Shown: one piece after another, positions 7,557-48,505 of the stretch | Layout of the letters: each line of letters starts with the position of its first letter | Position numbering within the stretch: position 1 is the stretch's first letter | NCBI GenBank assembly: GCA_965248695.1 | Contig: CBDFKD010000002.1 | Location: forward strand, 5,184,001 to 5,248,000 | Reading direction: 5' to 3' | DNA length: 64,000 nt | Origin: Acidobacteriota bacterium | Lineage (GTDB): Bacteria; Acidobacteriota; UBA890; WLXD01 | The notes under the pieces: model-generated | Seen by the model: only the letters and a program-made list of their open reading frames with translations | Databases searched by the model: none | Told to the model about the DNA's origin: nothing | Made by a program: the position numbers and the translations under genes

Positions 7557-7575
7557 TCATCCCAGGCACACACCC

Positions 7576-13966: not shown

Positions 13967-13999
13967 CCGCAACTTCTTTTGTGGAGGAGTGCCCCGACA

Positions 14000-31412: not shown

Positions 31413-32111
31413 CTAGCTGGAGTTGAACCGAACCTCTAGCTCCTTGACAACATCCAGCAGGGTTGCTGTCGACGCCGGTAACAATACGTAGTACAGCGGC
31501 TCTCCGTCTCCAGCACCGGCCCGCGGTTCGATAACAAAAACCTTTTCGGCGAGAGTTGCCGCAAATGACGTGACGCTGTCTTTGGCCTCGTAGGTCACGC
31601 GGTACCCGATGCGCAACGGGAGCAAATGGTGTTCGTCAGCGTAGGGGCTCACGGTTGCCGGTTCGAGGGTCTGCTCGACGAACTCCTGGAACGCAGAGGA
31701 GAACATCCGTCGAAAGTCGATGTCGAGGGTGCAGATGCAGAAACTGTCCTGTGTCTCTGCGATGGGGACCATCGCGTCAACGTCGCACAGGCCGGACTCG
31801 ACGAAACACTGCATGAGCTGGGCGTGGAACTCGTCCGCGTTTTCCGATGTGCCGAGCACCGTCGAGGAGATCCGCCGGGGCTCTACCCGCGTATGCATGA
31901 TCGGCACCGCCGTGTCTTCGTCCAGCTGGTACGCGCCCCTCTCGAATACCACGGTATCTAGCCCGGCTTCGCCCAGGTTCGGGTTTACGTTGTTGAAACC
32001 GAACTCGGTGATGAGCTTGTTGCCAAGGCCTGCTGACAACACGGCCCCCGCAGGAAGCACGTCCGATCTAAAGATGCGCGTCTGGCTGACGCTCAGTCGT
32101 CGAACCTTCAC
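31413..32111 (-). CDS. Hypothetical protein, third gene of a TA-like operon
   Basis: GTGA-coupled to the HTH gene. Confidence 0.6.
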   Translation of the reverse strand: MKVRRLSVSQTRIFRSDVLPAGAVLSAGLGNKLITEFGFNNVNPNLGEAGLDTVVFERGAYQLDEDTAVPIMHTRVEPRRISSTVLGTSENADEFHAQLMQCFVESGLCDVDAMVPIAETQDSFCICTLDIDFRRMFSSAFQEFVEQTLEPATVSPYADEHHLLPLRIGYRVTYEAKDSVTSFAATLAEKVFVIEPRAGAGDGEPLYYVLLPASTATLLDVVKELEVRFNSS

Positions 32112-32782
32112 GCGACTATCCCCTGCTCAGCTCCGCTGGAGATTCCGGACGCCGGGCGCGCCTGAACCGAGGGGGCAATCGAGTCGTCCATTGTGCTGGC
32201 GTAGTGGGAGATGTCGTCCTGCGGGATGAGACTACTGGCCCCTTGGGATTCCAGCCCGCTCTGGGGCACGCAGCTTGGTGCCAGATGCTGTTGGGTTGGT
32301 GCTCCTGGGGCGGGGTACCACCACATTGCCTTGCTGCCGATCGACGAGCCGGCAGAATGCCATATGCGAAGAAGGTCCGCGATCGTGATGGCAGTAGACG
32401 TATCCTCCTCTACTGCTCGGCCGTGGAACTCTGGATCCTCGTCAAACGAGGCCTGCCACAGGGTGGCAGGGCTGCGATCCTCGATCTCAAACAGCATCTC
32501 ACCAAAGCTCTCGAACCGCACCGACAATCCGATGTCGAAGATCTCGGCCAGCCGCTTAAGCGTCCCGATCCGCCCCGCCGGTTCGTTCGGATCCTCTAGG
32601 CGGGAAATAGCTGACTGGCCGGTTCCGAGGAGTTCGGCAAGTTGCTCCTGAGATAGGCCCCGGTGCTTCCGGAGGATCCGAATCTGTGACGCTACGACAG
32701 AATCGACGAACGAGTCGATGTAGGCATGCCGGTACTCTGGGTCACGAAACTCCTCGCGTAAGTGGTCTATGTCACGGGTCAA
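32108..32782 (-). CDS. XRE-family HTH antitoxin (HigA-like) with a long C-terminal extension
   Basis: QIRILRKHRGLSQEQLAELLGTGQSAISRLE. Confidence 0.8.
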   Translation of the reverse strand: MTRDIDHLREEFRDPEYRHAYIDSFVDSVVASQIRILRKHRGLSQEQLAELLGTGQSAISRLEDPNEPAGRIGTLKRLAEIFDIGLSVRFESFGEMLFEIEDRSPATLWQASFDEDPEFHGRAVEEDTSTAITIADLLRIWHSAGSSIGSKAMWWYPAPGAPTQQHLAPSCVPQSGLESQGASSLIPQDDISHYASTMDDSIAPSVQARPASGISSGAEQGIVA

Positions 32783-33161
32783 AACGCTGCCTCCAATCCG
32801 CGTCGTCGATGATCGCTACTCGTCGCTTATTGGCTTTCGCACAACTGTTCCGGGGGTTCCACTTGCCGCCCACCTCGAACGCGCCCATCAGGAACGTGAA
32901 CTCCGTGGTCTTGTCGATCGGCCCCTTGCACAATATGGGTCGTAGCTGCACTCCTCCGACTTGGATGCGGAGCTTGTAGAGATGCCGGTACTTCCGTGTC
33001 GCGTCTTTGATTGGACCGGCAAGGAGCTCTGTCGAAACCGTCGGACCCTCTTCCCTGAGCAGTTTCGCCTTGTCGTTGAATCTGGCCTGCGCCCGACGCT
33101 GAAGACCATCGCGCCAGGAGGTAATCGTCCCCTGGCCTCTACCATCTACGTACTCATGCAA
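32772..33161 (-). CDS. RelE/HigB/Gp49-like toxin (start uncertain)
   Basis: LYKLRI.VG.VQLRPIL, FTFLMGAFE; lies upstream of the HTH antitoxin. Confidence 0.65.
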   Translation of the reverse strand: MHEYVDGRGQGTITSWRDGLQRRAQARFNDKAKLLREEGPTVSTELLAGPIKDATRKYRHLYKLRIQVGGVQLRPILCKGPIDKTTEFTFLMGAFEVGGKWNPRNSCAKANKRRVAIIDDADWRQRFDP

Positions 33162-33610
33162 GGAGAAGATGGGCGTTGACGGTACCTTATCACGATACTG
33201 TGATGCTGCGAGTTGACGGCGCTTTCGGCGACTCACCTGGCGGGCAGCGATTATCACGGGCCATCCGGCGGGTATCGGGCGCACCCCCCAGTTCCTCCCC
33301 CACCGTAGAAAACACCGTGCGGCCCTTCGAAAAGGCCGCCCGGCGCTTGCGGGCACGTCGAAGCCCCTCAGCTTCGCGCGGCGGGAAAGATAGCACGCGA
33401 GAAGATCGCCGGCACTTCAGCTGCCTGCCAGCAGATGCGGCGCCAGGCATGGCACAGGTGCTCGCGGCCAAAAAGCGGTCTTGATGAGCAACCAAAAGAG
33501 CGGCCGGAGGAGGTATCGTAGCGAACGTACCGTTCCGACCGCTCTTTCGTTCTTCGTGTACCGGGTGGTGGTGGGCTGGTGCCGGCTCCGGGCTTCCTAT
33601 CTACGGGTCA

Positions 33611-34251: not shown

Positions 34252-34551
34252 TTACCCCAACACCACTAGAGTATCGATCGTTGTCCCTAGCGCTCTAGCA
34301 ATGCGGGACAGCGCGGCTGTAGAGCCGGGCTTGAGCCCACGTTCGATCTCAGACAGATATCCTGTAGCGATGCCCGTCTTGGCGGTGAGGTCGCGCACTG
34401 TGATGCCGTAGTGGGCGCGGAATGCAACGATTGGGCGTTCACCCTCCATAATGGCAAGTGCCACCTCGTGCGGGATACGGCTCCCATCATCTGCCTCGAG
34501 TGCGGCTAACCGATCCTCAAGTTCTTCCTTGCTGGCAACAAGGGCATCGTG
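34252..34551 (-). pseudogene. 5'-truncated XRE HTH antitoxin
   Basis: EELEDRLAA...IPHEVALAIMEGERPI.AFR...GYLSEIERG; in-frame TAA just upstream and no start codon for the N-terminal part. Confidence 0.65.
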
Positions 34552-35305: not shown

Positions 35306-35418
35306 TCACCCCGCTGCACCAGCTGATCGGATTATGTCGACCTTCTTGCTGAACGCGTTTGTTAGGCGAGTAAATCTGCGCATGTTCATGCGCATGGTCA
35401 GGTTCTGCCGCTCGATTC
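35306..35418 (-). pseudogene. Fragment of an IS1-family transposase
   Basis: IERQNLTMRMNMRRFTRLTNAFSKK matches the core of 36749-37585. Confidence 0.8.
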
Positions 35419-35577
35419 GCCGGAGAGCCGATGAGCTAGAAGAACTTCTCATCGAAAGCGTCGATGACCCATCCGACCTCGACCACGAGCGCGTCAAGGC
35501 TCTCGAATACAGCCAAGCCGGTATCAGGCCCCATACCTTCGCCGAAGACTACGCGCGCGACCACAAGCGTATCCATT
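35416..35577 (+). repeat. 162-bp exact direct repeat of 40236-40397
   Basis: Base-for-base identity read from the sequence. Confidence 0.9.
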
Positions 35578-35788: not shown

Positions 35789-36391
35789 ATGGTTCTAGGC
35801 TCTGACAGGTTGTGGGAAACGGCGTTTAGGGGACTCATGGACCCGAAATTGCTTGTCGAAAGGTACCAGTACTTATCCAGGAAGCGACGCGAGATCGAGG
35901 GGAAGATGGCGGCCCTGGCGGAAATGCAGCAAGTCTTAGGGGTGGAATTGGACGACGTAAACGACCAGCGCGCCATGCTTTGGCTTCAGCTCGATCGACA
36001 GGCTCTGCTTGATCGTGACGATATCCGCGAGTATCTCGGTGACGCCACGAAGCCGCCTGGCATCAAGCGCGTGCGTGCCGAACAGGTAGACCGAGACTTG
36101 ATGAGATACCTGGCCAATCAAGATGGTCGGGAATGGCGCGTCCGGGACATCCTCACGCACAAGAACGCCATGCGGCTCGGCCATATGTCTGATAGCGGTG
36201 TTCGGGCGGCGATTAACCGCGCCATCGAGCGCGGCGAACTGGAGAAGACTGGCGGATGGGGGATCGTTCGCGTATCGGACCGAGGTAAGGAGTCTTACGG
36301 TCTTGATGCCGAGGCTGACTTGGAAGAACAAGACATGGACCTGGCCGAGAAAGAGGCCATGGAAAAGGAGAAGGCTAGGCCACCGTTCTGA
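35789..36391 (+). CDS. Hypothetical protein (possible winged-helix C-terminal domain)
   Basis: 200-aa ORF after an AT-rich promoter-like region. Confidence 0.6.
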   Translation: MVLGSDRLWETAFRGLMDPKLLVERYQYLSRKRREIEGKMAALAEMQQVLGVELDDVNDQRAMLWLQLDRQALLDRDDIREYLGDATKPPGIKRVRAEQVDRDLMRYLANQDGREWRVRDILTHKNAMRLGHMSDSGVRAAINRAIERGELEKTGGWGIVRVSDRGKESYGLDAEADLEEQDMDLAEKEAMEKEKARPPF

Positions 36392-36442
36392 ACAAAGAGC
36401 CCGCCGCTGCGGTAACAGCGACGGGCTCCGACAACTTGTGAT

Positions 36443-36517
36443 GGCCTCGTGGACAACAGACGGTCAAGTCGCGGGACTGGAAATCCCGAGATCCCGGTTC
36501 GACACCGGGCGGGGCCT
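36443..36517 (+). tRNA. tRNA with GGA (Ser) anticodon on a Cys-type body
   Basis: Acceptor GGCCTCG/CGGGGCC, anticodon stem CGGGA/TCCCG with loop CTGGAAA, 4-nt variable loop, T-arm CCCGG-TTCGACA-CCGGG, T73. Confidence 0.85.
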
Positions 36518-36748
36518 CACCTTTCTCCCCTGACAGCAAGGAGGGTCAGATGATAGCGCGAGCACCACCGTCAGCGCATCCCTGAACGCCGAAGGGGCCG
36601 GGGTGCGTCTCACGATGCTCCCCGGCCACCTATAAGTCGCCCGGCCCGCTGCACGAACAGCGAACCGGGCTAGATCCAAGACGCGGGCATAGGCCGCATC
36701 GGACCCTCACAGCCATTGTGGTCCTGCCCGCCATCCGGAGCAAGACCG

Positions 36749-37585
36749 ATGGCGAACGTACTGGCCCCCGAGAAGAAGCGCATGATCATCGCCGCCCTGG
36801 TGGAGGGCAACAGCATCCGCAGCATCGAGCGCATGACCGGCTGTCACCGAGACACGATCTGCCGGCTGCTCGTGCGGGTAGGTGAAGGCTGCGAAGCCAT
36901 GATGCGCGAGCGGTTCACCGGTTTGCGCCTTGACGATCTCCAGGTCGATGAAATCTGGACCTACGTCCAGAAGAAGCAGGCCACGGTGATCAGGTCCGGC
37001 AAGCGCGTGAATCCCAAGCATGGTGATCAATGGGTTTTCGTCGCGCTCGATGCCGAAACGAAGTTGGTGCCGCATTGGATCGTCGGCAAGCGCGACGGCT
37101 ACAACTCCTACCAGATGATCTCGGAGCTGGCCCGTAGGATCGACGGGCCGTTCCAACTGACCACGGACGCTTTCGCTGGCTACAAGGCCGCTCTCGGAGT
37201 CGTGGCGGCTCGTGGTATCGACTACGCACAGCAGACCAAGAGCTATACGGCCACGAATCCATCCTTCGGACGTTACTCACCACCAAGGGTCAGCCACTGC
37301 ACAACTCAGGTTGTGGCCGGAGATCCAGATCCGGAGGCGATCTCCACGAGCTACGTCGAGCGTCAGAACCTGACCATGCGGATGAGTATGCGACGGTTCA
37401 CCCGGCTGACGAACGGCTTCTCAAAGTCGCTGCGCAACCTGGAAGCCGCTGTGTCGCTGCACTTCGCCTGGTACAACTTCGTGCGGATTCACGACAGCCT
37501 GCGGAGCACGCCGGCCGTTGTGGCCGAAGTAGTTAGTACCGAGTTGGCGATGGACGACCTGCTGGCCTTCGAGGCGGGCTACTAA
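36749..37585 (+). CDS. IS1-family DDE transposase
   Basis: LVEGNSIRSIERMTG, QVDEIWTYV.KK, TTDAF, YVERQNLTMRM.MRRFTRLTNGFSK, YNFVRIH. Confidence 0.9.
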   Translation: MANVLAPEKKRMIIAALVEGNSIRSIERMTGCHRDTICRLLVRVGEGCEAMMRERFTGLRLDDLQVDEIWTYVQKKQATVIRSGKRVNPKHGDQWVFVALDAETKLVPHWIVGKRDGYNSYQMISELARRIDGPFQLTTDAFAGYKAALGVVAARGIDYAQQTKSYTATNPSFGRYSPPRVSHCTTQVVAGDPDPEAISTSYVERQNLTMRMSMRRFTRLTNGFSKSLRNLEAAVSLHFAWYNFVRIHDSLRSTPAVVAEVVSTELAMDDLLAFEAGY

Positions 37586-37698
37586 TGCTCGGTGATTTCC
37601 ACAGGATATCCACAACGGGTGGCGCTCCTGTTGATGATGACCCCCAACATGTTGTGGTCGTGATGTTGACCACGGGACTTCCCGCAGGCTACAACAAC

Positions 37699-37729
37699 AA
37701 AGACCCGACGGGTTCACCGTCGGGCCTTT
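37699..37729. terminator. Possible bidirectional terminator hairpin
   Basis: AAAGACCCGACGG-GTTCA-CCGTCGGGCCTTT. Confidence 0.5.
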
Positions 37730-37879
37730 GACCAAACCAGTTGTCACCCGGCGTAGGCGCGCCGGGACTTTGATGCTCTGTCGGAGCATAGGCCGCTCTG
37801 ACCTTGAGCGTCAAGTCGCACCCGGTGCGTCTGTCGGGTGGCAACGCAGCGCCCGCATTATGCGGGAGGAGTAACTGCA

Positions 37880-38035
37880 ATGCCAACTACAGGCAAGACT
37901 GCCACCACGTCCGGGATCTACCGGGCCAGCGACTGCGGCTACGAAATCGCCCTCAGCCGAGGGGAACGATTTCCACCGTGTCCGATGCATCGGCGTGCTG
38001 TGACGTGGACTCTGGTGAGGGCGACGAAGCACTAA
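37880..38035 (+). CDS. Small YjzC-like zinc-ribbon protein
   Basis: GGAGGAG RBS; TG...SGIY...C...GERFPPC. Confidence 0.6.
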   Translation: MPTTGKTATTSGIYRASDCGYEIALSRGERFPPCPMHRRAVTWTLVRATKH

Positions 38036-38399
38036 CGTAGCCCGACACCGCATCACTGTTGTAACCGAAGAGGTGCCCCATTACCCAATCGGGGCACCTC
38101 TTCCTCGTCTCCAAGAGAGCTTCTAGGGCGTAGGCGTGACGATATACGCCTAGCGCCCACTGGCCGCGTTCGACCTCCAAGAGGAACCCGCTGATCGGCA
38201 GCGATAGCGAGGACAAGAGAGTCTGTAGCTCGCTGGCGAACGCGGGCAAGTCTTCGCTCGCGATGTTGCGCGCTCCGACCTCGGCAATGGGTTTACCACC
38301 CCAAGCTACCCATTCGGCATACGCCGAAATCCGGCCCGCTTCGTAGTCGGTGATCATTTTTTTGAGATCACTCCGATCCGGCGCGCTGTCGCCCTCCAT
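37953..38399 (-). CDS. Hypothetical protein
   Basis: Protein-like ORF (GKP.A, W..G.LFGY); 3' end overlaps the neighbouring gene. Confidence 0.5.
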   Translation of the reverse strand: MEGDSAPDRSDLKKMITDYEAGRISAYAEWVAWGGKPIAEVGARNIASEDLPAFASELQTLLSSLSLPISGFLLEVERGQWALGVYRHAYALEALLETRKRCPDWVMGHLFGYNSDAVSGYVSASSPSPESTSQHADASDTVEIVPLG

Positions 38400-38499
38400 T
38401 AGGCTAACAGGCACAAACGCTCCTCGAAACGGCCAGCAAAATCCGTACCAAACTGACTTTCAGTGACTTTCATAATGGGACACTACCCATACGAGATCA

Positions 38500-39114
38500 C
38501 TACCCTGGCAGGCGGCCGGGGCTGGCGCGAACGCCGAGCACGGTGTTGGTTTCCGGGTCGATGTCGCATTGGTAGGTGTGGTTCTGCCAAGCACCGAGGC
38601 CATTTTGGAACTGGATCTTGTCGCCGATCAGGGTGAGGGTTCCGGCAGACTGATCCTTCCAGCGGAAGCGGCTGAACTTTGGCTCAAGGAAGCCGTCTGT
38701 CCACTGGTGGCTGTATTGCGCTAGCCGCTCGATGCGGTCTTCGCAGTACACACCTGTAGAGATGTGCCTGTTGCCCCAGCAGTTGAGGTCTTGCCGACAG
38801 GCCGTGTCGCTGACCGAAGGTGCGGAAGACGAGCCTGACCCTGGGTCATCCGTGCTGAGGACGTAGACGCAAAAAGCCAGTCCTAGCAGAAGCATCACCA
38901 CACATCCCATGGCGGTCTTGCTGGCCTGCTTTTTCTCTGCAGCCGCCGTCTCGGCGGTGAGGCTGGGTGCCGAGTCCTCGGGCTCGGGGGCTGCAGTGGC
39001 TGGGGGCGCGGCCGCGGCCGGATCCTCCGTTCCAACCGGGCAACCGCACTGCGGACAGGCTGCCGCCTGGTCGGAAATCTGAGCCTTGCATTCAGGGCAT
39101 TCGATCAGAGCCAA
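38500..39114 (-). CDS. Zinc-ribbon single-pass membrane protein (superinfection-exclusion-like position)
   Basis: ALIECPEC..ISDQAAACPQCG, TM segment, FQNGLGAW...Y.CD. Confidence 0.75.
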   Translation of the reverse strand: MALIECPECKAQISDQAAACPQCGCPVGTEDPAAAAPPATAAPEPEDSAPSLTAETAAAEKKQASKTAMGCVVMLLLGLAFCVYVLSTDDPGSGSSSAPSVSDTACRQDLNCWGNRHISTGVYCEDRIERLAQYSHQWTDGFLEPKFSRFRWKDQSAGTLTLIGDKIQFQNGLGAWQNHTYQCDIDPETNTVLGVRASPGRLPG

Positions 39115-39404
39115 CGTCGGTTTCCCCGTTCAGCGTTCACCGACCCTCGGGTGAGGTCGGCCTGTAGCGTGTAGAGCCTGCCGTAGCAGGCGCTCTCGGT
39201 CCTCCAGCGCGCTCCCCACGCGGCCTTCTCATCTTCTCCTTGTGTTAACAGACATTTGTCTAGTATGGTCTGCCACTTTGGATTAGAGCACACACGTACG
39301 GATACCGCTACCGGAAGCAGCCCCCTCGCCTCCCGGTTCGGAATGCTGGGAGGCATAAAGCATGGAGTGGATTGCGGCCAGTTTCGGATTTCTAGTCGGG
39401 GTCA

Positions 39405-39809
39405 TCATCGGTGTTCGATGGGGCGTAGCTTCGGTGCTGCGCGTGGCTCGGGATCGTCGCCGTATTCGGCTCCGAGTTCCCTAACAATCTTTTCAAGCTC
39501 GTCTACGTCCGCTTCGTATTCTTCTTTGATCTGGAAAAGCAAATCCATCAGGCGGAGGGTTCGTATGCGCGAGCGCGTGAGCCCCGGCAGATGAACCGCC
39601 AAGGCATCAATGAGCCCCTGGCCGCTCGGGTGCGACTTGCCCGTGATCCAGTTACTCAGCGTCGGTTGTGGGACACCTATTAGGCGGGCAGTAGCGCTCT
39701 TGTTCATGCCGCTTTCCTCGATCGAAGCCTCGATCGCCGAGCCCAGGTACCGCCTGAGGTAGATGTGTCCGTGTTTCTTGCGGGGTCGCACGCGATCAAT
39801 ACTTAGCAC
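39405..39809 (-). CDS. cI-like XRE repressor, cassette 1 (start uncertain)
   Basis: ARLIGVPQPTLSNWITGKSHP; divergent from a cro-like gene. Confidence 0.75.
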   Translation of the reverse strand: MLSIDRVRPRKKHGHIYLRRYLGSAIEASIEESGMNKSATARLIGVPQPTLSNWITGKSHPSGQGLIDALAVHLPGLTRSRIRTLRLMDLLFQIKEEYEADVDELEKIVRELGAEYGDDPEPRAAPKLRPIEHR

Positions 39810-39871
39810 TTCCTGCCGACGGGTGCCGGAAAGCTATTGCGCTATCCAGTGAAACAGGTTATCTTTCTTCT

Positions 39872-40105
39872 ATGAGATTCAGCAGAGAAACACTCCGATC
39901 TGCACGGGAAGAGGCGGGAATGTCCCGCGAGGACGCTGCCTTCTTCTTGCGGCAGTCTGGAAACGGTGTGTCGGTACGCACACTGCTTAATTGGGAGAGC
40001 GGTCGGTCGGAACCGCCGGCAGGCCAACTCGTGAATTTGGCGAATTTGTACGGCGTGAACCCAGTTGCATTTTTTTCACCAGATTCAACCAGTAACGCAG
40101 CCTAA
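39872..40105 (+). CDS. Cro-like HTH protein, cassette 1
   Basis: LRSAREEAGMSRE...VSVRTLLNWESGRSEP; TTGCGC-17-TATCTT promoter just upstream. Confidence 0.85.
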   Translation: MRFSRETLRSAREEAGMSREDAAFFLRQSGNGVSVRTLLNWESGRSEPPAGQLVNLANLYGVNPVAFFSPDSTSNAA

Positions 40106-40144
40106 GACGAATACTCATACTCGACGAGGTCGCATAGAAACCCC

Positions 40145-40203
40145 ATGACGCTACCGAACGCAGACACCCACACGCCACTGCGGAATCAGGCGGGTAGCGC
40201 AGT
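40145..40203 (-). promoter_or_regulatory. Putative CII-activated leftward promoter, copy 1
   Basis: ATGACGCTACC-N17-CGCCACTGCG-N15-CGCAGT. Confidence 0.65.
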
Positions 40204-40255
40204 GGGCGAGGCCATCGTCACGCTTCTCATGGAGCTTCGCCGGAGAGCCGATGAG

Positions 40256-41017
40256 CTAGAAGAACTTCTCATCGAAAGCGTCGATGACCCATCCGACCTC
40301 GACCACGAGCGCGTCAAGGCTCTCGAATACAGCCAAGCCGGTATCAGGCCCCATACCTTCGCCGAAGACTACGCGCGCGACCACAAGCGTATCCATTTGC
40401 ACTTTTGGGGGTGCAGAGAAGACGAGGGTCGCGATTTTTGCGTTGTGTACCAGGCGGGGCTTGGTGACGGCGATGAACGTTTTGGGCTGGCCAGCGGATT
40501 CGTCATCGACGAGAGCGTTCAAACGGAAGCGCTCGGGCATCGCGGCGACGACCGAGAGCAATTTGTGCTTGTTCCGGTTGTCCAGTCTTCTCAGAAGGGA
40601 GAGGGGCGCCATCACGGGATCGTCACCTTGGTACGGCTGAACTCGCTCGATCAAGGATCTGGCCTCAGCGGGAAGGCTGGCAATGCGCCGAGCCCCGCGC
40701 GATTCGTATGCCCGTTCGGAGTCGAAGATCGGAAACAGGGTCAGTGTGTCATCAAGATCCGCCCCAGAAAGCTCCCAGGCGATGTAGTCGAGCGAGCACC
40801 GCAGGTTGTGGATGCAATCGCCGATGGTCAGCGCCCACTCACTACTGGGCAAAGCAGGAGGATCTTTGACGCGAGCGACGTAGCGGACTTCGTCGATCTC
40901 AGCCTCAACGACGATTCGATAGAGGTTCGCTTCAAAGAAGGAGTCAGTTTCTCTTTTAAGCGCTTCGAGGTGCTGTCTCGCCCGACGAAGTTTGGCGCGA
41001 CTTCCATCAAGCCCCAA
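40256..41017 (-). CDS. Cargo protein, possible HEPN-like nuclease (start uncertain)
   Basis: AKLRRARQHL, IGDCIHNLRCSLDY, LRRLDNRNKHK. Confidence 0.65.
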   Translation of the reverse strand: MGLDGSRAKLRRARQHLEALKRETDSFFEANLYRIVVEAEIDEVRYVARVKDPPALPSSEWALTIGDCIHNLRCSLDYIAWELSGADLDDTLTLFPIFDSERAYESRGARRIASLPAEARSLIERVQPYQGDDPVMAPLSLLRRLDNRNKHKLLSVVAAMPERFRLNALVDDESAGQPKTFIAVTKPRLVHNAKIATLVFSAPPKVQMDTLVVARVVFGEGMGPDTGLAVFESLDALVVEVGWVIDAFDEKFF

Positions 41018-41079
41018 TTGGCACAGCTCCTCGGGATTGAGGTCGACGACGACGGGGAGGCGGCGTGAGCGGCGTGAGG

Positions 41080-41295
41080 CTAGTCGAACTCGACGCCTTC
41101 CAGAAGCTCGTCGACGGTGCATTCCAGGGCGCGGGCGATCTTCGCGACGTTCTCGATTCCAGGGCTTCTTGTGTTGCCGCTCAGAATCTTGTTCAGCTGG
41201 CTTCGAGCCATCCGCGCCCGATAAGCCGTCTCCTCGATCGAGATTTCCTTCTCCTGGATTACGGCTCGCACACGCTGCCCAAACGTCAAGCTCAT
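41080..41295 (-). CDS. cI-like XRE repressor, cassette 2
   Basis: RSQLNKILSGNTRSPGIENVAKIARALECTVDELL. Confidence 0.8.
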   Translation of the reverse strand: MSLTFGQRVRAVIQEKEISIEETAYRARMARSQLNKILSGNTRSPGIENVAKIARALECTVDELLEGVEFD

Positions 41296-41421
41296 GCGCC
41301 AGACGCTATTCGTGTGAGTTTCCCCCATCAATCTTCGCAAATACTACTTGACGAATCTGCAACTTCTCTTGTATAAATATAGACAGCGCAGATTTGCAAG
41401 GTCATAACCGGAAGCTCGATC

Positions 41422-41631
41422 ATGGATAATCGCATCAAGGAAGAACGCGAAAAGCGGGGCATGACTCAAATGGCCTTGGCTGTCGCCGCTGGGCTCCACC
41501 CAGGACACGTCAGCCGGATCGAAAACGGCTCCGGCTGCGAGCTGAAGACTGCACGCAAACTCGCTGACGCGCTCGAAGTAACCCTCGATGAGCTAGTCGG
41601 GCCGCGACGAAGCTGCCTAGGAGCCCCATGA
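41422..41631 (+). CDS. Cro-like HTH protein, cassette 2
   Basis: NRIKEEREKRGMTQ.ALA...SRIENG; TTGACG-18-TATAAA upstream. Confidence 0.88.
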   Translation: MDNRIKEEREKRGMTQMALAVAAGLHPGHVSRIENGSGCELKTARKLADALEVTLDELVGPRRSCLGAP

Positions 41632-41686
41632 CGCTACCGAGCCCCACCACCCCCACGCCACTGCGGAGTGAGGCGAACGGCGCAGT
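41628..41686 (-). promoter_or_regulatory. Putative CII-activated leftward promoter, copy 2
   Basis: Same blocks and same 17/15-nt spacers as copy 1. Confidence 0.65.
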
Positions 41687-42136
41687 CAACCTCGACATCG
41701 TCAAGGTTTCGCGTGCAGCGCTGTTACGCGTTGGCGTGTACGTGACGCCGAGCTTTGATGACACGTGGTGCCCCCACCTCATTCCGATGGGGCTTGTCGG
41801 AGCGCGGGCGGATAGCCCCCTTTGCTCTCCATCTGGTCTTGTTGATTGTCCAGAAACAACTGAACTCGAAGCAGGGCCTGACGAAGAAGCCAAGGAATCG
41901 ACTCGGACTGGAAGCTCCCCGCACAAGGAATGCGCACTGTCAACAGAAGTTCTTCGTCGTCATCTTCAACGCCTTTGCCGGGAGATACCGGGCCTTCTGG
42001 AGGAGCTTCGCTTCCTGTCGGAAACGCTAGCCGCATGCGGATCTGAACCGTGCCCCCTTCGAGAGGAAAAATCGTGAAGCCGGGTCGATCTGGGTATTGG
42101 TACACGGATTCCTCCGAGTCGTTGGCGAGCGGAGAG

Positions 42137-42360
42137 CTAGTCGAACTCGACGCCTTCAAGAAGCTCGCCGGGATGAACGCCGAGGGTGCGAGCAATCTTC
42201 AGCAGGGTCGACGCTCGCGGATCTATCTGACGCCCCTTTGTGCTGACGACACGCCAGAAGGTTCGGCGGTCGTTAGCGGTGGGCATCGCCTCTGCCACAC
42301 CTGCGTCAGGGTCATCCCGCAGTCATCCACCAGCGCTCTGAGGCGATCTCGAAGCTCCAT
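42137..42360 (-). pseudogene. cI-like XRE repressor, cassette 3, frameshifted
   Basis: MELRDRLRALVDDCGMTLTQV then AEAMPT...PRASTLLKIARTLGVHPGELLEGVEFD in another frame; extra TG near 42296-42300. Confidence 0.75.
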
Positions 42361-42484
42361 CGGCATCAAAGCCTAGGCACCAGTGTGCGATACGTCAACG
42401 GCAGAAAAAGCACTGACGCTCTTGACGGTATTTGGGACACGGACTAATATGACAGTGATGATTAAAACAAGGACACATAAGGTC

Positions 42485-42685
42485 ATGCGATACACGATCC
42501 AGGACGTACTCGACCGGCACGGTGTTAGCCAGCGTGAAATGGCTCGGCGCACCGGGCTCGACTATTCCTACGTGAACCGGCTCGTCAACGGCCGGTTTGT
42601 GCCCCGGGTCGATAAAGCGTTGCGCCTCGCTGCTGCCTTGGAAGTGCAGGTCGAGGATCTGTTCGCACTCGACGAGGCCGCTTAG
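42485..42685 (+). CDS. Cro-like HTH protein, cassette 3
   Basis: GVSQREMARRTGLDYSYVNRLVNG; TTGACG-17-TAATAT at 42422-42450. Confidence 0.88.
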   Translation: MRYTIQDVLDRHGVSQREMARRTGLDYSYVNRLVNGRFVPRVDKALRLAAALEVQVEDLFALDEAA

Positions 42686-42693
42686 GAGGCCCG

Positions 42694-42752
42694 ATGACGC
42701 TACCTGCCGCCGAACCGTGCTCGCCACTGCGCAGTTACCCAGCTGGCGCAGT
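42694..42752 (-). promoter_or_regulatory. Putative CII-activated leftward promoter, copy 3
   Basis: Same blocks and spacers; perfect GCCACTGCG/CGCAGTGGC inverted repeat. Confidence 0.65.
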
Positions 42753-42755
42753 GGC

Positions 42756-42843
42756 ACTCCCGAACGAAAAAAGGGCGCGAGGAGCTGCAACTCCTCACGC
42801 CCAAACCACAACCACACAGGAGGTCATTCCAGTGCACTCCAAC
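42756..42843 (+). repeat. Hairpin plus RBS leader, repeated at 44099-44183
   Basis: First 54 bp identical; A6-GGGCG.GAGGAG-CTGCAA-CTCCTC.CGCCC, then CAGGAGG and a start codon. Confidence 0.85.
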
Positions 42844-42983
42844 TGTAGCACGGCCCGCGTATCTCGGCCCCCGGTGGTGTGCATGGCCTGCGCGCAGTGG
42901 GACGACGATCAGCGCCCCGACGACGATGGTGAGCTCGTCGCCGCCTTCGGCTCCCAGGCCGTGTTTGGAGTGGGGCGGTAGCG

Positions 42984-43628
42984 ATGCGCCGCGTCAGGGG
43001 ATACGAGATCAAGCCAGAAGCCGACCTCCAGGATGCCGATCTCCAGGATGCCGATCTCCAGGATGCCGACCTCTGGGATGCCGACCTCTGGGAAGCCGAT
43101 CTCCGGGGAGCCTGCCTCCGGGATGCCGACCTCTGGGAAGCCGATCTCCGGGGAGCCTGCCTCCGGGATGCCGACCTCCAGGGAGCCGATCTCGGGTTTG
43201 CCGACCTCCAGTGTGCCGACCTCCAGTGTGCCGATCTGCGGGGAGCCGACCTGTCGAAAGCCAACCTCCGGGGTGCCAACCTCCAGGGAGCCAACCTCCA
43301 GGGTGCCGACCTACGGGGAGTCGGCCTCCGGGGTATCAAGCTGTCCGATACAACGATCCTGTCAACGGGCCAGACGTGGCCGGAGTACCTGGCGGACTTG
43401 CCAGCGCTTCTGACCGCCGGCGGCAAGCCTCTAGCAGCGGTGGCTACGGAAGCAGCCTGGAGCTGCCATGACGACAACTGCCCGATGCATGTGGCCTTCG
43501 ACGCCAAGGGTGTCGGCGACGTACCCGAGCCATGGCGGTCCCAGGCGAAGCTGTTTGTCGCCCTGTTCGACGCCGAGCTGATCCCGCTGGAGGCGGTGAG
43601 AGCCACGTCCATGAGCGGAGCGGAGTGA
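42984..43628 (+). CDS. Pentapeptide-repeat protein 1
   Basis: A(D/N)Lxx repeats plus a C-terminal domain TGQTWPEYL...CH..NCPMH. Confidence 0.92.
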   Translation: MRRVRGYEIKPEADLQDADLQDADLQDADLWDADLWEADLRGACLRDADLWEADLRGACLRDADLQGADLGFADLQCADLQCADLRGADLSKANLRGANLQGANLQGADLRGVGLRGIKLSDTTILSTGQTWPEYLADLPALLTAGGKPLAAVATEAAWSCHDDNCPMHVAFDAKGVGDVPEPWRSQAKLFVALFDAELIPLEAVRATSMSGAE

Positions 43629-43634
43629 TAGCCA

Positions 43635-43816
43635 TGCGACAACGGCGTATCGACTGCCTGGCCCGCTGGTGCCAGGAGTACTGCGAGCGCCGGGGGCTGG
43701 ACTATGCCGCCACGCGCCGTGCCTTCGCTAAGCACCAAGGCTGCACGGCTCGGGATCTCAGCGCTGAGGACTACCTGGATTTCTACGTGGATCTGTACAC
43801 CGGGAGGGCGGCATGA
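43635..43816 (+). CDS. Small hypothetical protein
   Basis: ATG ORF coupled to the next gene. Confidence 0.45.
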
Positions 43817-44037
43817 GCGACCGGACCCGGGTCGTTGACACCCGCCACGAAGGCCCCCTGTGCCCGGCATGTTTCAGGGAGCTCCCGGAGACACCGAGCG
43901 AAGCTGTGAGCCGGCTGCTCGAATACTACGCGCGGCTCGATGAGCAGGACCAACTCGCATTCGTAGCGACTCTGATTGGCGACGCCGTGACGCAGCGAAT
44001 GGTTGCGCGCCTTCAGCCGGTCAGCGAGCCGACTTGA
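43813..44037 (+). CDS. Small hypothetical protein
   Basis: ATGA-coupled; CPAC. Confidence 0.45.
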   Translation: MSDRTRVVDTRHEGPLCPACFRELPETPSEAVSRLLEYYARLDEQDQLAFVATLIGDAVTQRMVARLQPVSEPT

Positions 44038-44171
44038 TGAGGACCGGGCACGCAATGACCAAAGAAAGCCGCAACGAGTTCGGGCGCTGGCAGATGAGAC
44101 TCCCGAACGAAAAAAGGGCGCGAGGAGCTGCAACTCCTCACGCCCAAACCACCATACAGGAGGTTGTTCCA

Positions 44172-44483
44172 ATGCACTCCAACGATGTCGAGTGCGCCGT
44201 CGCCCCCAGCCCTGCCGCTGTTCTCACGCCGATCTTATGCGAGACCTGCAACGGCAGCATCGAAGCACCGCGCGATGACACCTCGCCTCTCCAAGCAAAC
44301 GAAGAATGGCTAGAGGAGTGCGGCTGGGACCTGCGCGGCTACTTGGCTTATTGCCCCACGTGCGTGAGCCACTACCCGACCTGCGACCACTGCCACAGGG
44401 GGTACCACCCTCATGAGATGGCGCAGAGGGAGCCGGTTGCACTGTGCTGCGGCTGCGCCGAGAGCGCATCGAGGGCAGCGTAA
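44172..44483 (+). CDS. Cys-rich hypothetical protein
   Basis: AGGAGG RBS; several CxxC pairs. Confidence 0.55.
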   Translation: MHSNDVECAVAPSPAAVLTPILCETCNGSIEAPRDDTSPLQANEEWLEECGWDLRGYLAYCPTCVSHYPTCDHCHRGYHPHEMAQREPVALCCGCAESASRAA

Positions 44484-45046
44484 TGATAGTCAACGAGTGG
44501 GAGATCGAACCGGGCGCCGACCTTCGGTGTGCCGACTTTTCAGAAGCCAGCCTTTGGCTCGCCGATCTCAGGGGAGCCAACCTTCGGGGTGCCAGCCTCG
44601 GGGGAGCCGATCTGTCGGAAGCCGAGCTTCGGGGAGCCTACCTTCGGGATGCCAACCTGTCGGAAGCCGACCTGGCGTATGCCGACCTGTTGGGAGCCTG
44701 CCTCCGAAGAGCCGACCTTCGGAGAGCCAACCTCTGGGATGCCAACCTCCGGGATGCCAACCTCCGTGAAGCCAATCTCCGGGGAGCCTGCCTGTGGGGA
44801 GCCGACCTTCGGGAAGCCGACCTCCAGTGTGCCGACCTCCGGGAAGCCAAGTTCTGGGGAGCCGACCTCCGGGGTGCCAACCTCCAGGGAGCCAGTCTCG
44901 GGGGAGCCAAGCTGTCGGACGAAACGGTCCTGCCAACGGGGCAGACCTGGCCGAAGTACTTGGCGAGTCTGCCAGCACTTCTAACAGCTGGCGGCAAGCC
45001 TCTGCATGAGGTCGCCTTCGCTGAAATCACATCGAGGGCGGCGTGA
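44483..45046 (+). CDS. Pentapeptide-repeat protein 2 (C-terminal domain truncated)
   Basis: Repeats plus TGQTWPKYL...LLTAGGK; similarity to the paralogues ends after LHEVA. Confidence 0.9.
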   Translation: MIVNEWEIEPGADLRCADFSEASLWLADLRGANLRGASLGGADLSEAELRGAYLRDANLSEADLAYADLLGACLRRADLRRANLWDANLRDANLREANLRGACLWGADLREADLQCADLREAKFWGADLRGANLQGASLGGAKLSDETVLPTGQTWPKYLASLPALLTAGGKPLHEVAFAEITSRAA

Positions 45047-45127
45047 AGGGTACCGCGTTTCCCAACCGCGCCGCACGGAGCGGCGTTATCCGTAGTCGGG
45101 GTGGGCTCGATGACGGAGAAGACAACG

Positions 45128-45655
45128 ATGTCCATATCAAGCCAACAGGACTCACCCCGCGACCCGGCAGGTACCTACCCGTGGGATGCGATGCGCGATT
45201 GCATCGGCCCATACACCAACGGCATAGCCCGACATCTCGGGCTATCGGCCTCGCTGGTGCAGAAGTGGCAGCGGCCGGTCGGCGAGCACACCGACACCGG
45301 CGTGCGCAGCCCGCTGGCGAGGTTGGATCTGATCATCGAGGCATCGGTGGCTCTGGGGCAAGAGCGGTACTACGCCACGGCCCCGGCCCGGTACCTGCAC
45401 GAGCAACACCTGACCGAACCGCTGCCACCGTACTCCTCGGGCCACGCGATGACTGCCGATATGACGCAAACGGCAGGCACGTTGGAATCGCTTGGATCGC
45501 TGGCGTTCGTGGACGGCGTGATCGACATACAAGAGTGGCGACAGTGGGCGTCCTGCTGCGAGCGACTCAAGGCGATCCTGCTGCGTTCCGCGTCAACGAT
45601 GAGGGTCAACGCGGCGACGAACTGGCGGCCCGACGAGAGGCAGATGGGGGCATGA
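45128..45655 (+). CDS. Phage regulatory protein, possibly 186 CII-like
   Basis: HTH IARHLGLSASLVQKW, SPLARL..I, C-terminal DGVID..E. Confidence 0.6.
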   Translation: MSISSQQDSPRDPAGTYPWDAMRDCIGPYTNGIARHLGLSASLVQKWQRPVGEHTDTGVRSPLARLDLIIEASVALGQERYYATAPARYLHEQHLTEPLPPYSSGHAMTADMTQTAGTLESLGSLAFVDGVIDIQEWRQWASCCERLKAILLRSASTMRVNAATNWRPDERQMGA

Positions 45656-45710
45656 AGTACACGCCAGATCTGCTCTACAAGTACACCGGCCCTGAGGGTG
45701 AGGCGTAGCG

Positions 45711-45908
45711 ATGGGTAACCCGTGGTGGGTGAACGCTGGGCTGGCCACCTTCGCGGTCTGGTGTCTGGCGGTGTGCATCTACACGGGCCGGGAGATCTTC
45801 CGTACTCGCCGTCGCCGGCCGTTTCGGCTGGGGCAGCTATCGCCCGAGTACATGGAGGCGCTGCGGCGCCACGAGGGGCTGCAGAGCCCGGAGGATCGAG
45901 CAGCATGA
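45711..45908 (+). CDS. Small membrane protein
   Basis: One TM segment followed by a basic patch. Confidence 0.5.
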   Translation: MGNPWWVNAGLATFAVWCLAVCIYTGREIFRTRRRRPFRLGQLSPEYMEALRRHEGLQSPEDRAA

Positions 45909-47026
45909 TGATCACGGCCGACAAAGCCGACCTAGAGCGTGAGCTGCGGCACGTGGGCCAAATCGCGGCCAGGAAGATCCCCGCCCCCGCGGAAGTCGCC
46001 CGGCACGTGTTGCTGTCTACGTCCGGCAATGGCGACGCACTCCAACTGGCGGCAACTGATCTCGAAGTGAGCCTACAGACGCGCTGCGCCGCGCGGGTCT
46101 CGGCACAGGGCACAGCCACGGCCCCCGCCGCGAAGCTCAACGAGGTCGTCAAGTCGCTACCGGACGGTGAGATCGAAATCGAGCTACGCAAAGCGGGCTG
46201 GCTTGAGGTGCGGAGCGGCGATGCCGTCTTTGAGCTGGCGTCGTTTCCGGCGGCCGACTTCCCGGTCATGCCAACCGTCGATTTCGAGGACGCGATCGAG
46301 TTCCCGGCCGATGTATTGGGCGAAATGATTCGCCGCACCCTGTTCGCGGTGACGGACCAAGACGTTCGTTACGCGATGAACGGTGCTCTGTTGGAAATCG
46401 ACGGCGACAAGGTACGCATGGTGGCGACGGACGCGCACCGGCTGGCGATGGTCGAGCGCGACGGCATCGAGTTAGAGGCGCAGACACAGGTCAAGACAAT
46501 CATCCCGAAGAAGGCACTGGCAAAGATCCGGGATCTGAGTGAGCCCGAGGCGACGGTGCTCTTCACACAGGATGATCGGCAGCTGCACTTTCGGGTCGGG
46601 TACAGGGTGCTGTCGGGCCGCCTCATCGAGGGGAACTTTCCAGCCTACGAGAAGGTGATCCCGAAAGCTGACGAGGCGGCCTGTGTGCGGTTTGACAGAA
46701 CAAGCATGCGAGATGCGATTGGCCGCGCGACCCTGCTGTCGCCGCGCAAAGGGCTTTGCGTTCGGTTCGTGTTTGAAAACGGCTCGGCGGTGGTTTCGGC
46801 AGCCGATGGGCAGCTAGGCAAGGCGACGGAAACCGTACCGGTCGAGTATGCGGGCGAGCGGATCCAGGTCGTCTTCAACGGTCGCTACCTGGTGGATTTT
46901 CTTGATGCCACGAAGGCCGACCGGATCGCCCTGTATGTGAAGGACGACACCAGTCCCGGTCTCCTGTTGCCCGAGCCACAAGACGGGTCGCGCTATTGCT
47001 ACACCGCTATGCCGATGAGGCCGTAA
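45905..47026 (+). CDS. dnaN: DNA polymerase III beta sliding clamp (phage-encoded)
   Basis: ATDLEVS, RY.MNG.L, MVATDAHRLA, IIPKK, GRLIEGNFPAYEKVIP, FN.RYL.D, MPMR. Confidence 0.95.
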   Translation: MMITADKADLERELRHVGQIAARKIPAPAEVARHVLLSTSGNGDALQLAATDLEVSLQTRCAARVSAQGTATAPAAKLNEVVKSLPDGEIEIELRKAGWLEVRSGDAVFELASFPAADFPVMPTVDFEDAIEFPADVLGEMIRRTLFAVTDQDVRYAMNGALLEIDGDKVRMVATDAHRLAMVERDGIELEAQTQVKTIIPKKALAKIRDLSEPEATVLFTQDDRQLHFRVGYRVLSGRLIEGNFPAYEKVIPKADEAACVRFDRTSMRDAIGRATLLSPRKGLCVRFVFENGSAVVSAADGQLGKATETVPVEYAGERIQVVFNGRYLVDFLDATKADRIALYVKDDTSPGLLLPEPQDGSRYCYTAMPMRP

Positions 47027-47225
47027 CCGTGTGGAAGCCAAGGATGGAAGTCTACGTGCCGCATGGCTCGGAGGTTTGGTGGGTGGAGGGACGGGGGTTT
47101 CGGCTACCGACTGTGCTTTCCGTTGGAGTTGTCGCCGAGGGGAGAGCCCGGGAGCTTCTAGAACAAGACTTCCCCACATTCGAGATCGTCGCCCGTCGTG
47201 CCTATGACCCGAAAGGGCGCGCGGC

Positions 47226-47660
47226 ATGACGCAAACGTCGCTGTTTTCGACTCCTCCGTACCAGCGCCACTCCGAAGAGTCCAGGGCCGCCGCGAAGGCG
47301 ATCGTGGATTCCCTCAGCAAGCTGCAGGCACGGGTGCTGGCCTACGTCGCCTCCTGCCCGTACGGGGCCACCGATGAAGAGATCCAGCACGCACTCAGGA
47401 TGAACCCCTCCACACAGAGACCTCGGCGTTTGGAGCTGTTCAAGCTCGGGTTGATCGACAAGGCCCCCTATTGCCGCAGGACGCGCGCGGGGCGAAAGGC
47501 CGCTGTCTGGATCGTGTATCCCGCACAAGACCCGTGCACGGCAGCCGTGGCGCCCCCGGGGCCGCTTTGTGGTGTGTGCCACACGGTATTGAGAGGCAAA
47601 CAGCAGTACTTCTGCTCGGATGAGTGCCGGATGGTGTGGCATGGGCGGAGGGCGTCATGA
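47226..47660 (+). CDS. Winged-helix hypothetical protein
   Basis: GATDEEI...L.M..ST.RPRR.EL; C-terminal Cys cluster. Confidence 0.65.
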   Translation: MTQTSLFSTPPYQRHSEESRAAAKAIVDSLSKLQARVLAYVASCPYGATDEEIQHALRMNPSTQRPRRLELFKLGLIDKAPYCRRTRAGRKAAVWIVYPAQDPCTAAVAPPGPLCGVCHTVLRGKQQYFCSDECRMVWHGRRAS

Positions 47661-48505
47661 CACCGGAGCCAGGCATGTATCCGGGTGTTCCGATGCACGA
47701 GTATCACGCTTGGGAGGCGGTCTCCAACAGTCAGCTGTCGCGACTGGCGCGAACGCCGGCGCACCTGCGCGCCTACCTCACCAGTTCGCCGAAGGAGACG
47801 ACGGCGATGGTTCTCGGGCGTGCGGCGCATGCGGCGATCTTGGAGCCGGAGGAGTTCGAGGTCCGCTATCGCCGGATGTCTTGGCCGGACAAGCGCACCA
47901 AGGCGGGCAAGGCGGAGTGGGAGAAGCTGTGCGCCGAAGTGGGCGCGGAGTACGTGCTGCGGCCGGCGGACTATGACGCGTGTCTGGGGATGCGCGAGGC
48001 GGTGCACTGTCTGCGCCGCGCGCACGGGCTCATCAGCGGCAACGGACAGGTGGAGCTGTCGTGCGCTTGGAACGACAAGCGCACCGGCATCCTGTGCAAG
48101 GGGCGCATGGACCGTCACAGCCCAGAGATCGCGGACGGGGCGATCGTGGATCTCAAGACGACAAAGGACGCATCCCGCCGCAGTTTCGAGCGCACGATCT
48201 TCCGATACGGGTATCACCGGCAAGCGGCGCTGTACCTGCGCGGGGCGCAGGCGCTGGGGTTGGCAGCGCGCCACTACGCGATTCTCGCGATGGAGAAAGA
48301 GTCGCCCTACGCAACGGCGGTGTACCGGTTGACGGAGCCGGTTGTGGAGGCGGGCGACCGACAGCTGGATGTGCTGCTGGATCGGTACGCGCAGTGCGTG
48401 CGCCAGGATGCATGGCCGGCGTTCCCGGACAAGGTGATGGATGTGGCGCTGCCGGACTGGGCCTGGGGCGTCATCGACGAGGACATTAAGGAGGCAGTCG
48501 CATGA
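47657..48505 (+). CDS. RecE-like PD-(D/E)XK exonuclease (DUF3799-like)
   Basis: YHA..AVSNS.L, G.AAH..ILEP, CKGRMD, IVDLKTT, YGYH.QAA.Y. Confidence 0.9.
   Translation: MTPEPGMYPGVPMHEYHAWEAVSNSQLSRLARTPAHLRAYLTSSPKETTAMVLGRAAHAAILEPEEFEVRYRRMSWPDKRTKAGKAEWEKLCAEVGAEYVLRPADYDACLGMREAVHCLRRAHGLISGNGQVELSCAWNDKRTGILCKGRMDRHSPEIADGAIVDLKTTKDASRRSFERTIFRYGYHRQAALYLRGAQALGLAARHYAILAMEKESPYATAVYRLTEPVVEAGDRQLDVLLDRYAQCVRQDAWPAFPDKVMDVALPDWAWGVIDEDIKEAVA

Follow-up and report, generated by a model that had tools for sequence, protein, structure and literature searches.

Temperate-phage immunity is usually taught as a matter of one repressor and one specificity. Several immunity regions can nevertheless be found in one phage, as in P22, which has immC and immI (mnt/arc-ant), and in P1 and N15 (immA/B/C), while CTXphi/RS1 elements of Vibrio cholerae form tandem arrays with different rstR alleles. 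For lambdoid phages, cI and cro are described as being transferred together as a unit (PMC9836094). Here we examine the early control region of a prophage in an Acidobacteriota genome, contained in a stretch of 64,000 nucleotides (nt) that we refer to as the window (G000:C2:5184001-5248000; the source genome, G000, comprises 5.9 Mb in two contigs, C1 and C2). Between positions 39405 and 42755 of the window, three divergent pairs of small helix-turn-helix (HTH) genes, one of them with a frameshifted member, are stacked in tandem. On balance, we consider it probable that this region is a recombination-built array of CI/Cro-type switch cassettes which is under purifying selection and gives the phage several immunities. 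The structure and evolution of the array are well supported; for the function of the cassettes, we infer from the sequence that they may add immunity specificities and could possibly act as serially coupled locks.

Three probable switch cassettes in tandem

The repeating unit would be a cassette in which two small HTH genes, a repressor read leftward and a Cro-like gene read rightward, flank an AT-rich control region, the whole held between two junctions. The first pair comprises repressor 1 (rep1; 39405-39809, minus strand), a protein of 134 amino acids (aa) with an HTH and a C-terminal extension of ~70 aa (Pfam HTH_3, E 4.5e-07), and cro1 (39872-40105, plus strand; 77 aa, HTH_3 E 1e-09), separated by an intergenic region of 62 nt (39810-39871) which lies inside an AT-rich island at 39828-39902. 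In the second pair, rep2 (41080-41340, minus strand) encodes 86 aa with an HTH only (HTH_3 E 4.5e-10) and faces cro2 (41422-41631, plus strand; 69 aa, HTH_3 E 9.1e-14) across an AT-rich intergenic region at 41341-41421. The third consists of rep3 (42137-42369, minus strand), broken into two overlapping open reading frame (ORF) fragments, an intergenic region at 42370-42484 with an AT-rich island at 42418-42501, and cro3 (42485-42685, plus strand), which encodes 66 aa from its likely ATG at 42485 within a frame open from 42383 (100 aa, HTH_3 E 1.1e-10). The cro3 protein is identical in contig C1 and in G001, a genome of a sister genus, with identities computed over a 71-aa form starting 15 nt upstream of the likely ATG.

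The initial annotation, made from the letters alone, had proposed three divergent XRE-type HTH pairs, each with its own sigma70-like rightward promoter and with different recognition helices. The ORFs are present as listed, and five match HTH_3, but the third leftward gene is frameshifted, leaving five intact HTH genes (all above the Pfam cutoff) and one disrupted. The difference in recognition regions was borne out: when the HTH proteins of the window were compared by BLASTP, with the frameshifted rep3 omitted (its intact C1 allele is 33% identical to rep2), the only match was between rep1 and cro1 (30% over 54 aa). A promoter of the expected kind was found by a consensus scan for pair 3 (TTGACG-17-TAATAT, 42422-42450), whereas those of pairs 1 and 2 are weaker and were picked out by eye; the scan returned no promoter in intergenic region 1 and a leftward promoter-like site in intergenic region 2 (41405-41376). 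All three intergenic regions rank among the few AT-rich islands of the window, and repeated words were noticed in them by eye.

The array sits between leftward accessory genes and a rightward early operon that encodes a DnaN-like clamp (45722-47026) and a RecE-type PD-(D/E)XK exonuclease (47624-48505), which is the expected site of a lysis-lysogeny switch. As in a CI/Cro switch, pairs 1 and 2 are divergent HTH genes sharing a control region, as is pair 3 in its intact form in C1 and G001, and the position ahead of an early replication/recombination operon recurs in G016, a more distant relative. A megablast of 36000-48000 against phage records gave no match. A tblastn search of phage records with rep2 found five at 31-36% identity, with one place per record; four of the five are annotated as Cro/CI-type or helix-turn-helix regulators and one as a 'transcriptional regulator'.

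Conserved junctions between cassettes

Each cro gene is followed by the same conserved element, here termed E, as had been claimed from inspection: a repeat search recovers 65 nt at 40141-40205, 41624-41688 (78% identity) and 42690-42754 (71%), and the 26 nt directly upstream of each repeat, which form the 3' end of cro, are conserved as well. Junction E1 (40119-40205, plus strand) reads as a cro 3'-end remnant, ATGACGCTACC, 17 variable nt, ACGCCACTGCG, a variable stretch of 15 nt and GCGCAGTGG; E2 (41602-41688, plus strand) and E3 (42667-42754, plus strand) were delimited by the repeat search and alignment of the copies, with E3 as the last E before the early genes. The consensus is ATGACGNTACC, 17 variable nt, ACGCCACTGCG, 15 variable nt and GCGCAG(TGG), extending over 61 nt from an ATG in every copy, such that the right boundary of a cassette (~85 nt) comprises the last ~20 nt of cro and the 61-nt E.

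The left boundary is the 3' end of the repressor gene. In rep2 this linker (41079-41113, minus strand) contains the last codons, ELLEGVEFD, and the stop. Its near identity to the end of rep3, noted previously, extends over 35 nt (42136-42170; 94%). Among the seven repressor types compared, the last 30 nt (ELLEGVEFD-stop) are 96% identical (minimum 90% over 21 pairs), compared with 52% for the preceding 90 nt. The C-terminus of rep1 is not ELLEGVEFD.

A search for the E pattern found 11 copies at four loci of G000: three in the window, three on C1, four at a second chromosomal prophage near C2:2.785 Mb (which we call the P2 locus, not to be confused with coliphage P2) and one remnant. With none for a reversed control pattern, chance is excluded as an explanation. 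Within the family, the pattern occurs in two of 11 genomes (G000, and G001 with nine copies), and within the class in two of 26, where one further G001 copy appears at one mismatch; the reversed control was absent from all 26. In total there are 21 copies at seven loci in two genomes, and none in IMG/VR viral contigs or JGI metagenome contigs. One match in the species-genome collection (L035, the only one) resembles a chance hit, with different spacing and a position inside a 431-aa ORF.

An AGGAG overlapping the cro stop precedes the ATG of E by 5-6 nt. The invariant words cover synonymous codon positions of the frame opened by this ATG, with free variation in the segments that separate them. 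The ORF that follows cro in G016 likewise begins with an ATGACG, which overlaps the cro stop. In our reading, E is what has been kept of the leader and initial codons of the first early gene, probably carried along with each cassette, and some nucleotide-level function holds parts of it invariant. This role could be that of a protein-binding inverted repeat, a coupling signal or a plain recombination linker.

Several other identities for E were considered. It is not the N-terminus of one protein, since three or more unrelated genes, each with an ATG of its own, are found downstream of copies of E. A structured RNA was rejected: minimum free energy folds differ among copies (z +1.5 to -3.8 against mononucleotide shuffles), no Rfam family matches 38000-46000 at E<=1, and the inverted repeat of E spans 8-10 bp only, with a fold that is neither consistent nor unusually stable. 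Nor do the E words behave as a Chi-like host hotspot, given that ten 8-mers occur on contig C2 at 0.91-1.09 of the Markov expectation and with no strand bias. With regard to a nut-type antitermination site, E has the position after cro and a conserved linear word, its hairpin is not unusually stable, and no N-like protein was identified.

Another repeat, of ~80 nt (39124-39204), lies just upstream, in gene direction, of a leftward 204-aa gene; C1 contains four copies of it (5612-9167), and more are present on C2. It has the look of a leader or junction common to an array of left-arm accessory genes, a counterpart of E on the right arm.

Arrays in related prophages

Arrays were charted from the ORFs around E copies and a Pfam scan, and their cassettes typed by BLASTP. 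The window has three pairs and three E copies; C1 has four leftward repressors, three cros and three E; the P2 locus has three pairs and four E; and at the three loci of G001 (a to c) there are four pairs with a lone cro and five E, three small pairs with a large divergent pair and four E, and one pair with one E, respectively. Proteins matching HTH_3 and/or HTH_31 at E<=0.001 number 31 of 42 at the array loci and include all small leftward repressors and all cros but C1 croA, which together with cargo and flanking proteins makes up the other 11.

At least seven repressor types can be distinguished. The type 3 sequences of C1 and G001a are 100% identical, and a variant occurs in the P2 locus and G001b (70% identity for the repressor, 89-94% for cro); type B is found in four arrays at 60-91% identity and type C in two; types 2, A and D share 52-61% identity; and the remaining repressor types are E, 1 and C1-A. 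Each type occurs at most once per array, in an order that varies between arrays. Type 3, for example, is the third and last of three in the window, the second of five in G001a and the third of four in G001b. Related prophages had been expected to vary in the number and order of cassettes while keeping their junctions, and this is what is seen across five arrays in two genomes.

The leftmost repressors of the window (134 aa) and C1 (123 aa) are larger than the internal ones (67-120 aa) and carry C-terminal extensions, a pattern that applies to these two arrays only, in neither of which a transposase gene interrupts the left end. The divergent pair at the left end of G001b (L033; G001:C2:474001-490000, reverse strand, 2332-4590) encodes an AAA_24 protein of 325 aa and a protein of 93 aa that has no HTH match. 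This pair is followed by an E copy with ACG in place of ATG and then by a 283-aa gene whose N-terminus appears ParB-like by eye.

A conserved 184-aa early protein, present in three of 401 genomes of the phylum, led to G016, the sole more distant relative found; no relatives of this protein were confirmed in viral and metagenome contigs. G016 has a single divergent small-HTH pair, situated between the early genes and a homologue of the 204-aa gene, which is a Zn-ribbon gene (43% identity). This one genome suggests that arrays are derived from an older state with a single switch. The expectation that relatives normally carry one switch is thus satisfied by G016 alone, whereas the close relatives with sizeable arrays all have at least three pairs, which makes arrays the norm in this phage group rather than an oddity. 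The host class is sparsely sampled, with 26 species-level genomes in the collection searched.

Probable recombination at the junctions and support for the assembly

The same cro3 precedes three different E 5' segments, and the class of the E loop tracks the downstream content, which may be the element labelled T54, an 82-aa gene, cargo 1, cargo 2 or a repressor. Together these observations indicate that the mosaic switches inside E. Comparison of the window with C1 concerns the other junction. Window 41608-42200 corresponds to C1 10696-11288 (98.5%) and window 42125-42704 to C1 12196-12773 (98.1%). At the repressor linker these matches have 76 nt in common, and the window arrangement therefore equals that of C1 minus the DNA between two linker copies. 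A variant of the deletion type between shared repeats had been predicted, and the difference between window and C1 has this appearance, as a deletion or an insertion between linker copies. In general, arrays would gain, lose and exchange cassettes through homologous recombination among co-resident or co-infecting relatives, with the 30-nt and ~85-nt junctions as crossover sites. The phage encodes a RecE-like exonuclease; no annealing partner of this exonuclease was identified. Overall, the phage family seems to accumulate and swap immunity modules.

Short-read contigs from four runs (one sample, one study) bear on both recombination and assembly. Contigs of runs X1 and X4 join window position 42708 to 40169, giving cro3-E-cargo 1 with an E variant like that of G001, a junction not found in the mapped arrays of G000 or G001, and further array variants therefore seem to coexist in the sample. 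The array might be an artefact in which co-occurring strains or prophages, each with a single, different cassette, were chained by the assembler at shared repeats. The sample does contain several related elements, the short-read contigs stop at E and at repressor linkers, window-specific short-read pieces reach a depth of only ~3, and the frameshift allele of rep3 is absent from them. We nevertheless regard an artefact as very improbable: multi-cassette architecture is found at five loci of two separately assembled genomes, within long contigs, and contigs with no mismatch bridge rep1-cro1-E1 into cargo 1 (39312-40226) and E2 through the spacer to the rep3 linker (41638-42161).

Outside the array, at 35416-35577, 162 nt repeat the 3' end of cargo 1 (40236-40397) without a mismatch; this copy lies 4.8 kb to the left and near an insertion sequence (36716-37585). 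The start of contig C1 is a 99.96% copy of window 35932-38489. These two copies point to a recent rearrangement or an assembly breakpoint.

Cargo genes, a frameshift and the case for a single switch

Optional leftward genes between E and the 3' end of the next repressor would be co-transcribed with that repressor. The initial annotation had placed an inverted cargo segment after each of the first two cassettes. For the first this is credible: cargo 1 (40256-41017, minus strand, in its 253-aa form; the ORF is open to 41122) lies downstream of rep2 and has homologues, seven in all among 5.8 billion clustered proteins. The second, a spacer at 41689-42136 (98.5% identical to C1:10696-11288), may on the other hand be non-coding, as its possible leftward ORF (41779-42195, minus strand) has a weak codon-position GC bias (0.64/0.48/0.60) and no family matches. 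Neither cargo protein matches Pfam, PHROG, PADLOC or NCBIfam. An AlphaFold2 model of cargo 1 (mean predicted local distance difference test score 83) is a helical bundle with a beta insert, for which Foldseek returns nothing at E<=1e-3; its top VIA-align match is a HEPN protein (4nqf_B; Z 8.9, root-mean-square deviation 3.4, 122 residues aligned), below which generic helical bundles are interspersed with several HEPN toxins (Z 7-8). The HEPN Rx4-6H motif is absent, the corresponding stretch reading LRxSLD[Y/H], with H in two of nine aligned sequences and Y in the window. From the model, a HEPN-like fold is possible; if cargo 1 were an exclusion gene of this kind, transcribed together with a repressor, it would be a counterpart of rexAB.

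The gene at which the array is visibly damaged is rep3. Its halves (42137-42298 and 42223-42369) are in different frames owing to a 2-nt CA insertion near 42297-42298, which by alignment is missing from the alleles of C1 (98% identical) and G001, both of which encode an intact 76-aa HTH protein; the short-read contigs contain the intact-type allele only. As a result, at least one 'lock' is non-functional in cis. One position differs between C1 and the window in the cassette-3 intergenic region, and the intact C1 repressor could act in trans on window cassette 3, which would also account for tolerance of the frameshift.

A repressor gene lost in one of three window cassettes fits with the view that the phage has a single real switch, the other pairs being local regulators of adjacent moron or defence genes, or decaying passengers. 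Unpaired genes are likewise compatible with it, namely repC on C1, which has no cro, and cro0 in G001a, which has no repressor and adjoins a transposase gene. So is the position of cargo 1, always directly downstream of a leftward repressor and with a possible HEPN-like fold. XRE regulators commonly adjoin defence genes. Cargo 1, however, follows three repressor types (rep2 in the window, rep3' at the P2 locus and rep3 in G001a), which argues that it is not tied to a cognate regulator, and several cassettes are free of cargo, such as pairs A and B of the P2 locus with only E between them. Furthermore, the lone pair of G016 is of the same small-HTH kind as the internal cassettes.

The ratio of nonsynonymous to synonymous substitution rates (dN/dS) is below 1 in 20 of 20 same-type comparisons of repressors, cros and cargo 1, although the pairs are mutually related and the values are not independent. 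Among diverged pairs of the same type (dS > 0.2), it is 0.06-0.66 for repressors (at most 0.36 in eight of nine) and 0.26-0.49 for cros; cargo 1 gives 0.38-0.41. Decay is confined to three cases (window rep3, C1 repC and G001a cro0). It had been considered that the other pairs might prove decayed in all relatives; instead most cassette genes are intact, and this together with dN/dS below 1 indicates that the cassettes are not generally decayed. We view a single real switch among regulators or passengers as unlikely.

Possible functions: several immunities or one chain of locks

If the array provides several immunities, each repressor in a lysogen would silence its own rightward promoter and those of incoming relatives with the same operators, so that with several cassettes one prophage would confer immunity of several specificities. 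Direct gating of the early operon would fall to the cassette closest to the early genes, which in the window is type 3.

We hold this reading with moderate confidence, and a number of observations weigh against it. In this assembly rep3 is frameshifted, and the internal repressors are HTH-only proteins of 67-90 aa, without a recognisable sensor or oligomerisation domain. No 12-mer from any cassette's intergenic region recurs elsewhere in the window, leaving no OL-like partner site that would tell which repressor governs the other promoters of the phage. In addition, two genomes alone carry arrays, and their array copies are related, meaning that the counts are not independent. Finally, none of the short-read contigs listed spans more than one cassette, all ending at E and at repressor linkers, and the order of the window array is for this reason not independently confirmed.

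The cassettes might instead be serially coupled locks that add no immunity, with all rightward promoters feeding one early transcript. Interference between convergent promoters is known from coliphage 186. In a cascade of this kind, the rightward transcript of one cassette would run antisense to the next cargo and repressor, convergent-transcription interference would lower the next repressor, and sensing of the induction signal would be required of the first, larger repressor alone. All internal junctions are indeed convergent (cro against a repressor or cargo), the absence of intrinsic terminators on the plus strand of 38400-45200 is compatible with read-through of this sort, and the leftmost repressor is the larger one in the window and C1. 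This size pattern rests, however, on those two arrays only, while G001b begins with the AAA_24 protein (325 aa) and its 93-aa partner; the last repressor of the window is broken, leaving the last lock open unless C1 supplies a repressor; and coupling leaves unexplained why the cassettes must differ in type. We judge such a chain of locks, in place of extra immunity, to be unlikely; it could also operate in addition to it.

Beyond the favoured reading of several immunities, one may imagine that the phage family has made its immunity region into a system dedicated to cassette arrays. The junction words (ATGACGNTACC, ACGCCACTGCG and GCGCAG in E; ELLEGVEFD-stop) would then double as crossover sites and regulatory signals, prophages in polylysogens would continually gain, lose and swap specificities, and the stacked convergent switches would function as a single device: a sensor-bearing first repressor would trigger an interference domino through HTH-only repressors that otherwise give uninducible immunity against several heteroimmune relatives. 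We put this forward as a tentative scheme, itself rather improbable in its entirety.

A 54-nt exact repeat (42756-42809, minus strand) lies directly after E3 and recurs at 44099-44152 with 100% identity. On the minus strand it forms a strong intrinsic terminator, with a 13-bp stem followed by TTTTTTCGTT. The two copies are 1.3 kb apart, each with a small zinc-finger gene right after it, and the nearby genes are all on the plus strand; further copies follow the last E of the P2 locus, G001a and G001b. The repeat could be a terminator of antisense RNA or a small mobile element.

The surrounding prophage

Most of the window, which has a G+C content of ~64% and three tRNA genes, is a tailed prophage, with genes for the large terminase (8000-9355), portal (9762-11177), major capsid (13955-15115) and tape measure (19445-24301) proteins. 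Its early operon encodes three pentapeptide-repeat proteins (42984-43628, 44444-45046 and 53195-53845). Proteins of this kind can mimic DNA and these are therefore candidates for anti-restriction or anti-repressor functions. Within a DUF1376 primosomal-type gene (51308-52333), ATGGCAAAAGCT is present in five tandem copies (51648-51762), which are a probable iteron-type replication origin. In the left arm, a leftward block of three genes (31413-33356, minus strand) has as its middle gene a 224-aa HTH protein (32108-32782) whose matches to antitoxin-type HTH models are far under the cutoffs; the 194-aa and 232-aa proteins flanking it have no family matches. A lone 70-aa HTH gene is located at 34252-34464.

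Comparison with known immunity systems

Among the closest counterparts of the array is the lambdoid immunity region, in which a divergent HTH repressor and a Cro-like gene are likewise arranged around a common control region, an accessory gene may follow the repressor (rexAB after cI; cargo 1 here), and the whole unit moves among relatives by recombination in conserved flanks, as in imm434 and imm21 hybrids. Lambda has one such unit per phage, whereas here three to five units of different types stand in tandem, and the internal repressors are HTH-only, lack a C-terminal cleavable or oligomerisation domain and have no OL partner site that we could find. The coliphage 186/P2 switch offers a parallel for possible coupling by convergent transcription across a repressor gene, and these phages also have heteroimmune relatives with divergent small repressors; convergence is there a property of one switch, whereas here it lies between neighbouring switches and its role is hypothetical.

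P22, P1 and N15 resemble this phage in having more than one repressor-controlled locus, and P22 immI is also a divergent repressor pair. Their loci are, however, functionally distinct and set apart, the second governing an antirepressor, in contrast to the paralogous CI/Cro-like cassettes found here head to tail between identical junctions. The pair proteins belong to HTH_3/HTH_31, with no ribbon-helix-helix protein of the immI kind recognised among them, and no antirepressor family was hit when ORFs of the window and the arrays were searched with Pfam, PHROGs and PADLOC.

Integron arrays share with this system exchangeable cassettes that are separated by a short conserved element and vary in number and order among relatives. 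Here, by contrast, no IntI is found beside the array, the only integrase among the scanned window ORFs being a phage-type tyrosine recombinase (54716-55831) 12 kb away; E, which has an inverted repeat of 8-10 bp only, does not look attC-like; and the switch cassettes carry their own promoters and two divergent genes, with exchange that looks like homologous recombination within the junctions. In terms of tandem heteroimmunity, CTXphi/RS1 is similar in that several repressor alleles stand in tandem at one locus through recombination among related elements, but there whole prophage genomes are repeated, compared with a switch cassette of ~0.6-1.5 kb here.

If the favoured reading is true, stacked heterologous switches would alter views of competition between related phages in one host, of polylysogeny and of the wiring of induction. 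The array family would also offer a natural set of seven or more small repressor/operator pairs, probably orthogonal and with module boundaries that are defined, which is attractive for testing insulation versus coupling among switch modules. A word-match search of the open-access literature found no description of tandem CI/Cro cassette arrays in one prophage. The array departs from known immunity modules in that one phage genome stacks three to five heterologous units, with identical junctions on either side of them.

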